Made by a program: the position numbers and the translations under genes
Shown: positions 6,463 through 13,247 of the stretch, piece by piece
Numbering within the stretch: position 1 is the first letter of the stretch
Layout of the letters: each line of letters opens with the position of its first letter
Origin: Malassezia furfur
Taxonomy: Eukaryota
Assembly: GCA_052055015.1 (NCBI GenBank)
Contig: JBQJIT010000015.1
Reading direction: 5' to 3' (one strand)
DNA: 20,000 bases
The notes under the pieces: model-generated
The model's database searches: none
Told to the model about the DNA's origin: nothing
Seen by the model: only the letters and a program-made list of their open reading frames with translations

Positions 6463-7237
6463 TTACAGAAGGCGATGGATATTGTCATTCTCCAGGTCCA
6501 CCAGCGTCTTGGCATCGTACTTTCCATCTTCACGCGGCTGGTCGAGAAGCCTCTGCCACCACTTGAACAAGAACTCGTTCACGATGAGCTTGAACCACGG
6601 CGTGAAGGCCGACGCTGGGTGAGTAAAAAACGTACGATCCAGTTCGTTCATGAGTGTCTTGAGCTCCTCCATCGAGACCCACTTCACGTCACACACTTCA
6701 TTAGGGTTCACATTGAGCGTAACAGGTGTGGTCAAGAAAAGGATATAGTCGACTGTGGTCAGTCGGACAAAGCAACACACCTTCGTGTTCACCCCACAGC
6801 CCATCACTAGGCGCCATGTAATGGATGCGCGTGAGGAACTGAATGTCTTTCACATTTACTTGGTCCAAAGCAATGCCGAGTTCATGCTCGAGCTTCCGCC
6901 GCGCTGCGTTTTTGGCACCCTCCTTGCCGTCTAGTTCGGAACGCACCGCCAGCGGGTGAGAGCAGCAGGTGTTCGTCCACATATTGGGGAACGTGATTTT
7001 CTCCAGAGCACGGCGCTGGAGGAGCAACTTGCCCGTCGACGGGTCGAAGAGGAACATGGAGAACGCGCGATGCAAGAGGCCCTCGCGAATGTTGGTCATC
7101 AGGTGGCACTCTTTCTTGCTACCATCGCGCACATAATTGTCGTCGTTGTCCACCACAATGCAGCGCTCCTCCATGAGGCGGATCTGCTCCTCATCATGTC
7201 CCTGAAGAGAGACGTCTTCAGCTGGCGCACCGTTCAT
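6463..7237 (-). CDS. IDI1: Isopentenyl-diphosphate delta-isomerase type I; exons 7237-6781, 6752-6636, 6614-6463 (~241 aa)
   Basis: Motifs [22 protein letters not shown] and FTPWFKLI are present. WGEHE|VDYILF is restored by the 28-nt intron at 6753-6780. A second, in-frame 21-nt intron at 6615-6635 is probable. Confidence 0.93.
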
Positions 7238-7340: not shown

Positions 7341-8296
7341 ATGGCGTCGAGCACGGACACAATTGACGTCCATCCCTGGGTCCATCCTGAATTTCGGCCC
7401 GGAGATGTCGATAAAATTATCTCGGATGTTGGTGCGTTTTTAGCTAATGCCTAGATCGTTACAACCCCCAAAACCGCGGCGTCCTGTTGGAATACCTCAA
7501 CACACAACTGAAGAACGGGACATACGACGCCTTGCCAAACTTGGCCATCCTGAAACTGTACGTACCACACCAAGCCGGCACCCAGGATGAAATTTTTTTT
7601 GTCAGTTGTGAGCGTTGTGGACTCGAGACCCACGCGCGCAGGACGTCTTGTTATTAGCTCTAGCTGAGGCCGCTGGTTGTTTTGCCAAGGACATGCTGAC
7701 CACAGCTTCCAACTCAACCCGAACGAGTTCGATTTTGATACCGCTATATATATCCTGGTTAAAGCGCTTATGGCCGTGCCGTTTGCCGACTTTAGCCTCT
7801 GCATTTCGCTCTTGGGCGAAGCCCCTGTCGCTACGCTCACGGCGAACGACAGCGCAAAGAGTACCGGCGCGTCGGGTATCATCATCGAGCCTGTCATCGC
7901 GCATCTTTCCACTCTCTCGACTCTGCTTTTTGAGGCTAAATTCCGCGACTTTTGGTCGTTCTACCAAAGCGCCGAGTTTGCTGACGTTCGTTCATATACC
8001 AGCAAAGCACATGGGTTTGAGGATGCCGTGCGAAAGATGGCTCTCGACAGCGTCCAAAGTACCTTTCGAACCATTTCGACGGAGCGCCTTGCAAGCTACC
8101 TTAACATGCCCGTGGCAGACCTGGAAACCTTCCTTGGGAAGCAGGCCGGGTGGTCTATCTCCAACGGGACTGTTCACGTACCAAAAAACCCAGAGAACGA
8201 CGTGAAGCCCTCCGTGGCCCGCGAGGAGATTTCGCTAGAGAGTACGTGGTACCACACTGACAGTTAGACTTGTCCAAATTACTGGCGCAGGCATAG
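7341..8296 (+). CDS. EIF3K: Translation initiation factor eIF3 subunit K; exons 7341-7431, 7455-7557, 7706-8241, 8268-8296 (~252 aa)
   Basis: The spliced product has VDRYNPQN...YDALPNLAILKLFQLNP...LVKALMAVPFADFSLC. Introns are 7432-7454 (23 nt), 7558-7705 (148 nt) and 8242-8267 (26 nt), and all exon phases are consistent. Confidence 0.88.
7581..7669 (+). ncRNA. Intronic box C/D snoRNA, probable SNORD44/U44-like guide for 18S rRNA (human Am166-equivalent)
   Basis: Lies within eIF3k intron 2. C-box variant AGGATGA at 7584-7590 and D box CTGA at 7664-7667. The adjacent 12-mer TATTAGCTCTAG (7652-7663) is the exact complement of the conserved 18S sequence CUAGAGCUAAUA. There is an imperfect flanking stem (ACCAAGCCGGC / GGCCGCTGGT). 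Confidence 0.75.
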
Positions 8297-8322: not shown

Positions 8323-9294
8323 TCATGAGGAGACGCGCCATGTCCCGAGACACTCGATGTGTGCCTCGGTATCCGCACTACGCATGACCTTAGCCAGGAA
8401 CGAGGTCGGGTGAGGGGGTATCGAGGTGGTAGTGTGGTCGGACGGCTTGCATGTAAGCTCAACTAAGAGCAATGGATGTCCGTGGGCTGTCGTGGGCACG
8501 ACGTTGACGATATGCCATCCCGCAGCATCTTGGCCTGCAACTTGCATGAAGAGCATACACTCAAGTGTCGTGCTGATTCGATACATTGTCCGTACGGCAT
8601 CTTGACTTGTTCCCTGCCGGGAGCGGTAGGCCTGCATCAGCGCCGCGACATGGGCATCCCTTGGGTTGCACGTCGCAACAACAAAGCGCGTCGTGTTTTC
8701 TGCGTGAGCATAGGTAGGCATACCGTTGGAGTTTTGGATCCCTCGGACTAGGACTTGTGCGTTACTCAGTTCTGCTGCAAGCTCCGAACCAATGGCCGCG
8801 TCCATGTCGGACTGCAGAAGAGCGACGGCCTCAGCCGTCGACGGAGCTTCCTCGCGCGCCGCATGTGGCAGACGCTTTGCGAGGAACTGGGAGCATTGCC
8901 CGAGCGCCTGGGGGTGACTACGGACCACACGCAGGTTGCCAAGTTGGGCTGTGACATCATGCGAAGCTTGCCGAACGATCAGCGCGTGCGCAATACGCAA
9001 GTCGACTTCCTCGACGATCTTGAGTGCATGGGGCCCAAATGTGGCCTCATCGCCCAGGCAGGCAAACGTCTCGAGCACGGGCCCCTGCACGCTGTTGCTC
9101 AGCGGCACCACCACGACGATCGAGTGCGGGGCACGCGGGGCCGGAGCGATGCCTGCCTGCACAGCCGCGTGGATGGAAGGATGGGCGTGCAGGGTCACCG
9201 CATTTCCGCATGCAAACTGCCGCGCCGCCTGGTGTGAATAGGTCCCGAGCGGCCCCAGAAAAGCGACGCTGACGGTATCCGCTGGGACCTCCAT
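8323..9294 (-). CDS. PHA2: Prephenate dehydratase; probable exons 9294-8724 and 8699-8323 (~315 aa)
   Basis: Motifs VAFLGPLGTYSHQAA, SHPQALGQC, STAEA and NTTRF are present. Removing the 24-nt GTATGC...CTCAC GCAG segment at 8700-8723 restores the consensus spacing IQNSNENTTRF. Confidence 0.88.
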   Translation of the reverse strand: MEVPADTVSVAFLGPLGTYSHQAARQFACGNAVTLHAHPSIHAAVQAGIAPAPRAPHSIVVVVPLSNSVQGPVLETFACLGDEATFGPHALKIVEEVDLRIAHALIVRQASHDVTAQLGNLRVVRSHPQALGQCSQFLAKRLPHAAREEAPSTAEAVALLQSDMDAAIGSELAAELSNAQVLVRGIQNSNGMPTYAHAENTTRFVVATCNPRDAHVAALMQAYRSRQGTSQDAVRTMYRISTTLECMLFMQVAGQDAAGWHIVNVVPTTAHGHPLLLVELTCKPSDHTTTSIPPHPTSFLAKVMRSADTEAHIECLGTWRVSS

Positions 9295-9719
9295 GCTGGT
9301 TGTACCCACGGCTTGGATGTGGGCGTTACTCGGCGCACGCGCCAAGACCGGCCGACACGTGCGTGCCAGTGCCGATCCATCCAGATCGGCATATCACGTG
9401 CAAATGTATGTGCGGAGGGGTTGCGGGATGGGGTAAATGGGGCGGAATGTAGGAGGGAAAGTGCATTTTTGTGCAGGAGACGAATCACATCCGTTGGATC
9501 GATATGCGCCGATCATGAAAAACCTGCATGCGATTCGCGATGCACCTTCCTGGCGGCTGCATTTGCGGCGCCAGGACATTCCTTGTAAATCACGGGGTCG
9601 CAGCTGCGGAAAGACTGGGATGCGCGCCAACCTCATAATAATGGCCCGCGTCGCCTACTGATTCCCTTCACCCCGGCCACGACTTGCGCACCTAGTGTTC
9701 TCTGCAGCGTCCATCCGCA

Positions 9720-10901
9720 ATGCAACTCAGCCTCAAGTTTGTTACCGGCCTTCTGCTGGCCACCAGCGCAGCCTTTGCTGCCCAGGATGACATTGAAGTC
9801 AACCTGCACCGTCGCAACTTGTTCATCAACGCCGGCGACCAGCTCAACATTGAGGCCTTCACCAAGCACCTGGTGAATGTCAACAACAAGTACAAGGACG
9901 CTCTCGAGAACTTCAAGCGCAACATGGGCCACGACCACCCGCTGCTCAGCATTCTGTTGAACGGTATCAAGCGCGACAATGGTCAGGGCAGCCTGTCGCT
10001 GACCGATGTGCAGAGCGAGCTGCTGTGGTCGGGCGACGTGACCTACGGTGGTCAGACCTTCGGTATGGACTTCGACACGGGCTCGTCGGACTCGCTGGCG
10101 AACCCGGGTGCATACAACCCCAAGAAGTCGAAGACGGCGAAGAACACCTGGTCGACCTTCAGCGCCGCCTACGGTGATGGCACCCAGGCCCGCGGTCTTG
10201 TCTACACGGACAACTTCGAGATTGCCGGCCTTAAGGCCAAGAACGTTGCCATTGGCCACTCTTACACCAAGTTTATCGAGGACCAAGAGCCCGCCCAGGG
10301 CATTGCCGGCATGGCCTTCCCCTCGATCCAGACCTTCCCCAAGAAGTACAAGCCGTTCTTTGAGAGCCTCAAGGAGCAGAAGGCGGTCAAGAGCGGTGTC
10401 TTCCAATTCACCCTCAAGGCCGGCAAGGGCTCGACGCTGACGCTCGGCGGTATCGACTCGAGCAAGTACAAGGGCAAGGTTACCTACGTCGACGTTGACC
10501 CTTCGCAGGGCTTCTGGCTTACGGACGCCAAGGTTAACGGCCAGAGCATCAAGGCTATTATTGACTCGGGCTCGACCATCATCACCGGCCCTACTGCGCA
10601 GGTGCGCAGCGCTGTCCAGAAGATCAAGGGCATGAGCGCCTTTACCCAGGACGGCACGCTGATGTACACTTACGACTGCAACCTCACCCCCAATGTGACC
10701 ATCACTATTGGCGGCACCCCCTTCAAGCTCGGCAAGAACCAGCTCAGCTACGGCCGCACCAACGGCCAGTGTGTGCTGCCGATCGCTGGTCAGGATGGTC
10801 TGCCCCTGAACGCGTGGATCGTTGGTGACACCTTCTTCCAGGGCGTGTCGATCATTTTCGATACCGACAAGAACCGCATGGGCTTCGCCACCCAGGCCTA
10901 A
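9720..10901 (+). CDS. Secreted aspartyl protease, pepsin family A1 (Lys-rich paralogue)
   Basis: Signal peptide MQLSLKFVTGLLLATSAAFA and a propeptide ending in a KR site. Catalytic motifs DFDTGS and IIDSGS, flap AYGDG, and C-terminal WIVGDTFF...FD...RMGFA. Intronless. Confidence 0.93.
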   Translation: MQLSLKFVTGLLLATSAAFAAQDDIEVNLHRRNLFINAGDQLNIEAFTKHLVNVNNKYKDALENFKRNMGHDHPLLSILLNGIKRDNGQGSLSLTDVQSELLWSGDVTYGGQTFGMDFDTGSSDSLANPGAYNPKKSKTAKNTWSTFSAAYGDGTQARGLVYTDNFEIAGLKAKNVAIGHSYTKFIEDQEPAQGIAGMAFPSIQTFPKKYKPFFESLKEQKAVKSGVFQFTLKAGKGSTLTLGGIDSSKYKGKVTYVDVDPSQGFWLTDAKVNGQSIKAIIDSGSTIITGPTAQVRSAVQKIKGMSAFTQDGTLMYTYDCNLTPNVTITIGGTPFKLGKNQLSYGRTNGQCVLPIAGQDGLPLNAWIVGDTFFQGVSIIFDTDKNRMGFATQA

Positions 10902-11621: not shown

Positions 11622-13247
11622 ATGCGTATCACCATCCCTCTTCTTTCGCTCTTTCTCCTGGCCGCGTCCAACGTCTTTGCTGGTCCGGTTGCTAGCAAGT
11701 ACGAGACAGGCATTCCCATCAGCCTTCAGCGCCGTGCACGCTTCGTTAGTGCCAACGGCCATGTGAACCTCGTTGCTCTGACCCGTCATTACAAGGGGCT
11801 CGACAACAAGTACTCCAAGAGCCTCGAAAACTACCGTCGCAACACCGGCCACAAGCACCCTCTGCAAGCGCACCGTCACAAGAAGCGCGAGCACCCCAAG
11901 CACGGCCACGGTCACCCAAACCGCAGCCGTGACAAGAGCCGCAAGGATGGTTTCGGCGGCGCAGGCGGCGGCATGGGCGGCGGTGACTGCCCTGACCTGT
12001 GTGGCCCTGACGGCGGCATGGGCGGCGGCATGGGCGGTGGCATGGGCGGTGGTATGGGTGGAATTCCCGACGGTGGTTCAAGCCCCAGCTCGCCGAGCAG
12101 TTCGGGTGGTGGTTCGGGCGGCTCGCCGAGCGGTTCGGGCAGCGGCTCGGGCGACCCGCCGAGCGGTTCGGGCAGCGGCTCGGGCGGCTCGCCGAGCGGT
12201 TCGGGCAGCGGTCCGGGCAGCTCGCCGAGCGGTTCGGGCAGCGGTTCGGGCAGTGGCTCGGGCAGTGGCTCGGGCAGCGGCTCGGGCAGCGGCTCTGGCT
12301 CAGGTGGCTCCGGTGGTGGATCGGACGGCAGCTCGGTCAGCCTTACTGATGTCGCCAATGAGCAGCTGTGGGCGGGAGACATCACGTTTGGTGGACAGAC
12401 GTTTGGTATTGACTTTGACACGGGTTCCGCAGACACTCTGGCGAACCCAAGCGCCTACGACCCTCATAAGTCCGATACGGCGCAGAACACTAACCAGCCG
12501 TTCCAAACCTCGTACGGCGATGGCACGGCAGCCGAGGGCACCATTTGGACCGACTCATTCCAGATTGCTGGTTTCAGCGCGGAGAATGTGGCCATTGGTG
12601 TCGCGACCCAAGATTTTATCACGCCCGACCAGCAGCCCAGCCAGGGGATTAGTGGCATGTCGTTCCCTTCGCTGCAGGCTTTCCCTAAGGAATACCCTCC
12701 CTTCTTTGAGTCGCTGCGTCAGCAAAAAGTCGTGAACCAAGGCGTATTCCAGTTTACGCTCAAGGCTGGTGAGGGCTCTGAGCTGCACCTCGGTGGTGTT
12801 GACCAGTCCAAGGCTCAGGGCGACTTCAACTGGGCCACGGTGGACCCGTCGCAAGGCTTTTGGGTCACCGATGCGGCGATCAATGGGCAGCAAATTAAGG
12901 CGATTATTGATTCGGGCTCGACCATCATTTCGGGTCCCACTGACGAAGTCGGCGCGCTGATGCAGACCATCCCCGGCGCCACGCCTTCGCCCCAGGATGG
13001 CGCCACTGCGTACCTGTACGACTGTGATAAGTCGCCCGACTTGACGATCACTGTCGCTGGCCTTGATGTACACCTTTCGCGGGACCAGATGCGGTTCGGT
13101 CAGACGCAGGGCAAGTGCATGCTTCCGATCATGGGTCTGGACGGAATTCCTCTGAACGCGTGGATTGTGGGTGACACACTCTTCCAGGCAACGACCATCG
13201 TCTTTGACATGGATGAGAACCGTATGGGCTTCGCCTTGCAGGCCTAG
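11622..13247 (+). CDS. Secreted aspartyl protease, family A1 (acidic paralogue) with a Gly/Ser-rich insert before the catalytic domain
   Basis: Signal peptide, HKKR dibasic site, DFDTGS and IIDSGS catalytic motifs, SYGDG flap and WIVGDT. The catalytic domain is collinear with that of 9720-10901. Confidence 0.93.
   Translation: MRITIPLLSLFLLAASNVFAGPVASKYETGIPISLQRRARFVSANGHVNLVALTRHYKGLDNKYSKSLENYRRNTGHKHPLQAHRHKKREHPKHGHGHPNRSRDKSRKDGFGGAGGGMGGGDCPDLCGPDGGMGGGMGGGMGGGMGGIPDGGSSPSSPSSSGGGSGGSPSGSGSGSGDPPSGSGSGSGGSPSGSGSGPGSSPSGSGSGSGSGSGSGSGSGSGSGSGSGGSGGGSDGSSVSLTDVANEQLWAGDITFGGQTFGIDFDTGSADTLANPSAYDPHKSDTAQNTNQPFQTSYGDGTAAEGTIWTDSFQIAGFSAENVAIGVATQDFITPDQQPSQGISGMSFPSLQAFPKEYPPFFESLRQQKVVNQGVFQFTLKAGEGSELHLGGVDQSKAQGDFNWATVDPSQGFWVTDAAINGQQIKAIIDSGSTIISGPTDEVGALMQTIPGATPSPQDGATAYLYDCDKSPDLTITVAGLDVHLSRDQMRFGQTQGKCMLPIMGLDGIPLNAWIVGDTLFQATTIVFDMDENRMGFALQA
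12012..12300 (+). repeat. Coding tandem repeats: ~4 x 12-nt (GGGM), 5 x 33-nt (SPSGSGSGSGG-like; starts 12089, 12122, 12155, 12188, 12221), then a (GS)n run
   Basis: The unit CTCGCCGAGCGGTTCGGGCAGCGGYTCGGGCRG recurs, with a few substitutions, at an exact 33-nt period. Confidence 0.9.

Follow-up and report, generated by a model that had tools for sequence, protein, structure and literature searches.

A putative U44-like box C/D snoRNA in an eIF3k intron of Malassezia furfur, and a variant box C shared by other intronic candidates

Introduction

The eIF3k gene of Malassezia furfur raises a simple question: why should its second intron be 148 nt long when the other two are 23 and 26 nt? The gene lies on contig C15 of a 13.7-Mb assembly, within what we call the window, the whole 20,000-nucleotide stretch of DNA that was analysed. 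A preliminary description of the window proposed that the intron hides an unannotated box C/D snoRNA, guiding methylation of an 18S rRNA site that is not methylated in Saccharomyces cerevisiae, and that the presence of this RNA explains how the intron escaped compaction. Our analysis points with high confidence to a single-guide box C/D snoRNA encoded in the intron, in the role of U44, snoR18 and CD32, with late entry into the intron likely.

Neither the type of host nor the target is without precedent. The idea that the retained introns of intron-poor fungi, Malassezia included, act as snoRNA hosts is already published (PMC8476143), with RPL7/snR59 and NOG2/snR191 introns hosting snoRNAs in such fungi, M. 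sympodialis among them, and these host-snoRNA pairs kept in 72-82% of fungi. Neurospora crassa CD32 is an intronic RNA with a D guide (11/0) to 18S-Am161 and a D' guide to Um167; Table 1 of PMC2780460 gives these sites, and the paper lists CD32 as a homologue of snoR18 and U44, with none in S. cerevisiae or S. pombe as far as its listing goes. The main text of PMC5824354 (Canzler et al.) describes CD_32 as a Sordariales snoRNA.

Results

The identity of the host gene was established from its translation. A frame of 252 aa is obtained on excising introns of 23, 148 and 26 nt, exon 3 matches the domain PF10075 (CSN8/PSMD8/EIF3K, E 1.9e-23) in a domain search, and homologues of the window protein carry the name eIF3k. 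A second copy on contig C8 is 86% identical to the window copy across 1.5 kb. A tree of exon-3 translations places the C8 copy beside the named M. furfur protein with a branch length of zero; the window copy, 83% identical to that named protein, is sister to the C8 copy. Two-subgenome hybrids of the M. furfur type exist, and we infer that the genome is of this kind. Intron 1 measures 25 nt in the C8 homeolog and 52 nt in M. globosa. For intron 3, two acceptors separated by 4 nt are possible, and only the distal one yields the C-terminus also found in the named M. furfur protein. Closely flanking eIF3k are a NUDIX-family gene and a prephenate dehydratase gene, at 6701-7237 and 8323-9345, both on the minus strand, and two tandem aspartyl-protease ORFs are found at window positions 9720-10901 and 11622-13247.

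Within intron 2, everything that had been reported there, namely AGGATGA, a hairpin and a guide running into CTGA, was located at the level of sequence (Table 1). The span from box C to box D is 84 nt, leaving about 26 nt of intron upstream and 38 nt downstream, and with trimmed ends this predicts an RNA of some 90-94 nt. Boxes D' and C' were assigned by position only. Retention of the intron would bring a stop codon about 33 codons in.

Table 1 Features of the eIF3k gene and of the candidate snoRNA, in window coordinates.
Feature	Position	Strand	Remarks
eIF3k gene, 252 aa	exons 7341-7431, 7455-7557, 7706-8241, 8268-8296	+	frame after splicing out introns
eIF3k intron 1, 23 nt	7432-7454	+	
eIF3k intron 2, 148 nt	7558-7705	+	GT..AG, phase 2; putative snoRNA host
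External stem, 5' arm	7570-7579	+	partner 7669-7676; weak in window, strong in relatives
Box C variant AGGAUGA	7584-7590	+	G at position 2; RGGATGA in 6/6 introns compared
Candidate box D' GUGA	7608-7611	+	assigned from position ahead of hairpin
Hairpin between D' and C'	7612-7637	+	arms 7612-7620 and 7630-7637
Candidate box C' AGGACGU	7640-7646	+	assigned from position and likeness to box C
D guide, 12 nt	7652-7663	+	complement of 18S 159-170; predicted to select A163
Box D CUGA	7664-7667	+	invariant in 6/6 aligned introns
Branch motif and 3' splice site	7695-7705	+	branch motif 7695-7700, branch A 7699
eIF3k intron 3, 26 nt	8242-8267	+	missing from L043-type species

The box C departs from the consensus RUGAUGA in all six copies, which read RGGAUGA, and its GAUGA portion, the partner of box D, is unchanged despite the G at position 2. 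Overall folding of the intron is not above that of shuffled sequences (z -0.37 to +1.02). For the external stem, shuffles as stable as the real flanks numbered 160 of 300 for the window copy and 53 of 300 for the C8 homeolog, compared to only 0-4 of 300 for the introns of four relatives; about 40% of fungal C/D RNAs are reported to have no terminal or external stem (PMC5824354). The hairpin is paired in 87% of cells across the aligned introns, with covariation that is not significant, and an 11-mer spanning its loop and 3' arm is common to M. globosa. The stretch 5' of the candidate box D' is neither conserved nor matched to rRNA as a guide, which argues for a single-guide snoRNA. The Rfam search that had been suggested as a check gave no relevant match, at the gathering threshold or at E 5-10, to the window, the C8 homeolog or three relatives' loci. 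As Rfam also missed both candidates that bear a canonical box C, the variant box is not the sole cause of the miss. We class the putative snoRNA as one working like U44, and not as a member of the Rfam SNORD44/snoR18 family.

The guide points to a single rRNA site. Its complement has three matches in the 13.7-Mb assembly and the backwards control none: two fall in eIF3k introns, that of the window and its homeolog on C8, and the third in the 18S gene on C510. The 12 bp formed with 18S fall within the 10-21 nt of antisense characteristic of the C/D class, and the D+5 rule picks A163 in the genome's own 18S. The local register A156/A163/U169 has the bases and spacing of N. crassa Am154/Am161/Um167, and published tables equate plant Am162 with human Am166, the yeast entry being blank in both tables (PMC11542601, PMC8583080). 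By this register A163 is the equivalent of human Am166, Arabidopsis Am162 and N. crassa Am161, which bears out both the human Am166 assignment made in the preliminary description and, within those two tables, its claim that S. cerevisiae does not use the site. The snoRNA most likely marks A163. No second guide, for 18S U169, was found in the intron, or elsewhere in the genome by a single narrow pattern search.

To see what has been kept in relatives, a metagenome scan was performed with an eIF3k alignment, giving 45 loci. Of these, nine are of Malassezia type, made up of five that match M. globosa at 99-100% and four from a GC-rich L043-type species that branches near the base of Ustilaginomycotina, its exact place being loose. 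The guide is present in all nine, as well as in the homeolog, and in eight it lies in the same intron, of 173 and 206-209 nt; the ninth locus ends upstream. When one intron per lineage is compared across three lineages, the sole shared word of at least 7 nt is a 13-mer covering the guide (7650-7662). GGATGA and CTGA are also kept. The base before box D (7663) varies between G, T and C, as expected of an unpaired position. The external stems differ in sequence from species to species and their pairing persists. We thus see boxes and guide conserved amid divergent surroundings, as in the C/D class, between lineages whose eIF3k proteins share only about 57% identity. A fourth lineage was seen as protein only: the mis-called N-terminus of P0004 reads DSRPTR..LLALAE, which corresponds to translations of the window hairpin and of the guide and box D in two frames of the intron. 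Conservation at the DNA level covers three lineages, none of them a smut, so the time of arrival is only loosely placed. In prokaryotic and viral collections, searched for stray fungal contigs, no eIF3k was found, and the 39 matches from a pattern scan of viral contigs were taken as chance background.

The other 36 loci have an agaric protein as their best match, and the 9-nt guide core occurs in none of them. Twenty-four have an intron at the same position, of 48-57 nt and guide-free; four have no intron there, and in eight the junction was not located. The short, guide-free introns suggest that the snoRNA probably arrived and lengthened the intron, most likely through entry, in the line of Malassezia or of Ustilaginomycotina, into a short intron that was already there, and the proposal that the intron escaped compaction fits less well than such an arrival. 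The opposite history would have the snoRNA as ancient in this intron, guarding it from shrinking in Malassezia and lost from the agaric line. The position of the intron is indeed common to agaric-type fungi, conserved snoRNA introns are known across fungi (PMC8476143), and the L043 species branches deep in Ustilaginomycotina. The sole hint of a relic, an 8-nt piece of the guide in the 57-nt intron of an agaric-type locus (L085:741-797), is within chance. With no guide core in any of the 36 non-Malassezia loci, with all 24 measurable introns at 48-57 nt, and with in-frame translations covering 90-126 nt in three smut-type introns bearing no guide-D trace, itself a weak point, we regard an ancient origin as rather unlikely, and retain late arrival.

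If the snoRNA works as established snoRNP biology would have it, Snu13 would bind the C/D kink-turn during splicing, Nop58, Nop56 and Nop1 would then join, the lariat would be debranched and trimmed to the protected core, and the D guide would pair with pre-18S for Nop1 to 2'-O-methylate A163, a function equal to that of human U44, plant snoR18 and N. crassa CD32. A real snoRNP might instead serve chiefly as a chaperone that helps the 18S 5' domain to fold, and methylate A163 hardly or not at all. Such a role would suit the short guide pairing of 11-12 bp and the non-standard box C, and the conserved D'-C' loop could pair elsewhere, as in yeast snoRNAs (PMC3116282). Extra pairing of this loop with rRNA was looked for and rejected, as only 6-bp matches were found, not above background, the match to 18S being one of 17 such in 18S. 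Since, moreover, the D+5 nucleotide coincides exactly with a site at which methylation has been mapped in plants and humans, we consider a chaperone role very unlikely. Still less probable is that the conserved words act in cis on the splicing or feedback control of eIF3k, through retention coupled to decay for instance, and that no stable RNA is released. The early stop on retention and the existence of long introns with no C/D signature, such as RPL7 intron 1, would be compatible with this, but the conserved parts are a box C, an rRNA antisense and a box D in the right order and spacing, and the same design is repeated in unrelated hosts. Chance similarity or a decayed relic, which the missing Rfam match, odd box C and unremarkable folding might suggest, can be dismissed with near certainty, given that 11 nt of perfect rRNA antisense beside CTGA arose in 18 of 20,000 dinucleotide shuffles of the intron and antisense-CTGA with an upstream R[GT]GATGA in none, and that the elements are invariant across such diverged lineages. 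A conserved U44-like guide hosted by eIF3k, as first proposed, is thus what the guide, boxes, EIF3K domain and relatives jointly favour.

We then asked how common the variant box is, using patterns with identical gaps (5' splice site..RGGATGA..CTGA versus other bases at position 2) that demand exact GATGA and CTGA and cover intronic RNAs only. The RGGATGA pattern gave 27 matches versus 3 in the control, and the other three bases together 42 versus 16. One classifier was applied to all 27 G-type matches and to 33 of the 37 distinct other-base matches. Eighteen of the 27 terminate properly, with a branch motif and a 3' splice site, making up eight homeolog pairs and two singles (10 loci), and 14 of these 18 have a guide of at least 10 bp. 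Among other-base matches four qualify, from two loci, both with U. In short, 10 of the 12 intronic C/D loci found have RGGAUGA rather than RUGAUGA. The snoRNA of RPL7 intron 2, missed by the patterns, likely has a box C with U at position 2, and its inclusion brings the tally to 10 G to 3 U. Three of the G-type guides select 25S A2265, A2335 and U2426, each 47 above N. crassa 26S Am2218, Am2288 and Um2379, a constant offset that argues for these guides being real. Hosts of the intronic C/D RNAs include Nop14, YchF/Ola1-type, PDCD2_C, RRM and LisH proteins.

Snu13 normally pockets a flipped-out U at box C position 2. The Snu13 of this genome is close to the human protein, and of the residues that we take to form the pocket, E61, I65 and K86 are the same as in human and I100 is V. 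Co-evolution of Snu13 with the variant box thus finds no support, these candidate residues being nearly identical to human. U4 retains U at what we presume, from our picture of its structure, to be the equivalent loop position. A search of the genome for U3 gave no match and is uninformative as to U3. Fungal box C has been reported as almost perfectly consensus (PMC5824354), and no description of RGGAUGA was found in the literature searched, a scope outside which most subscription papers lie.

Several further introns came to light. At G000:C3:41902-42168 (L172) and its homeolog G000:C245:10154-10419 (L171), two snoRNA introns of 132 and 134-135 nt stand back to back with no exon between, just ahead of an ATG-led 183-aa frame, an arrangement suggesting a zero-length exon or recursive splicing; a D' guide of 16 bp to 18S U1225 is present in the first, and a D guide of 11 bp to 25S in the second. 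Both subgenomes also contain RGGATGA/CTGA introns of 156-157 nt (L135/L141 on C4 and C51, L145/L147 on C81 and C97) in which no 10-bp rRNA guide stands beside D or D'; these may be orphans or guides for snRNA. Degenerate box C candidates (GAAGATTA, AGGATGT, AGGATTA) in the long introns L168/L169 (C123, C188), L165 (C765) and L170 (C266) escape the strict patterns. An intron of 143 nt (L097/L100, C371:7666-7808 and C445) has a canonical box C and a D guide that would pair over 12 bp close to the 3' end of 25S; the ATG of a methyltransferase gene, presumably ERG6-like, follows immediately downstream. In intron 2 of RPL7 (L214/L216, C38 and C34; 218-221 nt), CTGA follows a 13-nt guide to 25S; the RNA is probably of the published snR39/59 type, and a clear 3' CUGA is lacking.

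Intron lengths across the genome put the 148 nt in context. With a strict pattern for short introns (22-57 nt) there were 985 matches, versus 37 in the control, and the first 100 of these 985 span 22-52 nt, so that the typical length of about 23 nt given earlier for the window is the low end of a wider range; that intron 2 is the window's single long intron rests on motif scans. A 122-157-nt class gave 108 matches versus 33 in the control. Among the first 30 of those 108, 21 were flagged as chimeras of short-intron ends, and the nine non-chimeric candidates divide into five with a C/D signature (three loci) and four without. RPL7 intron 1, of 159-162 nt, has no C/D signature either. Intron length is therefore a useful but unspecific snoRNA filter: the suggestion that length outliers could serve as an ncRNA finder is upheld as to enrichment but not as to specificity. 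Introns of 128-188 nt with no C/D boxes (L166/L167 on C600 and C713, L108/L110 on C6 and C7, L215 on C100) are H/ACA or regulatory candidates, and the first two pairs are kept in both subgenomes.

Spacing within the 12 intronic C/D loci is narrow, with box C 21-31 nt from the 5' splice site and box D 29-47 nt (median 32) from the branch A. The window intron, at 32 nt, agrees with the roughly 30 nt noted earlier, which is no peculiarity of this locus. Intron 2 shares its geometry with the other intronic C/D RNAs of the genome, and would be long because it must hold the snoRNA together with its upstream and downstream margins.

Discussion

These comparisons confirm, as far as sequence can, a real and conserved U44-like guide in a new host, for a site that already has a known fungal guide. 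The target site itself is not new, CD32 having been published, and what would be new is the host: eIF3k as a snoRNA host was not found in the literature searched, which included the consulted part of PMC8476143. The host of U44 is the non-coding GAS5. Like CD32, the Malassezia RNA is fungal and intronic, of similar size (82 nt for the CD32 cDNA), and has a D guide to the equivalent of A163, of 11 bp in CD32. The two differ in that CD32 is a double guide, its D' guide directed to Um167, whereas in the Malassezia RNA, which lies in eIF3k, no D' guide is conserved and box C is RGGAUGA; CD32 was compared by its published table. Human SNORD44/U44 and Arabidopsis snoR18 share the target site by the published equivalence tables, but the Malassezia RNA has no Rfam match, and snoR18 additionally guides 25S Am2935 (PMC11542601/PMC8583080 tables). 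As with RPL7/snR59 and NOG2/snR191, an intron-reduced fungus carries the snoRNA in an intron of a gene related to translation or the ribosome; unlike those pairs, the eIF3k pair was found only in Malassezia-type loci.

We found no description of a U44-like RNA from Malassezia, or of a basidiomycete example, in a search whose scope most subscription papers fall outside. The part of PMC5209728 covered, its supplement included, holds no snoRNA annotation and no guide match. The word 'Malassezia' does not occur in the main text of PMC5824354, whose supplements (147 genomes, all box motifs) could already hold the Malassezia RNA.

What would be unexpected to a specialist is the majority RGGAUGA box C together with the fixed intron geometry, neither of which was found described in the literature searched. 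We lean, by a little, towards a picture in which Malassezia has shifted its box C consensus to RGGAUGA in most intron-encoded C/D snoRNAs, with U4 and Snu13 remaining standard, in which the host introns keep a fixed minimal geometry, in which snoRNP assembly might depend on the spliceosome or an assembly factor instead of the usual contact with box C, and in which snoRNAs have spread into short introns of new hosts, eIF3k among them.

The snoRNA adds a basidiomycete example to a guide group of humans, plants and Sordariales, suggesting an early presence of Am166 in fungi, followed by its loss from yeasts. The genome-wide regularities are more useful than the snoRNA itself. A majority non-canonical box C would make Malassezia snoRNAs difficult to detect by consensus-based tools, and would test the weight of the position-2 nucleotide in Snu13-driven assembly. 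The tight spacing, among introns of mostly 22-52 nt, would offer a natural measure of the least room that the spliceosome and a snoRNP need.
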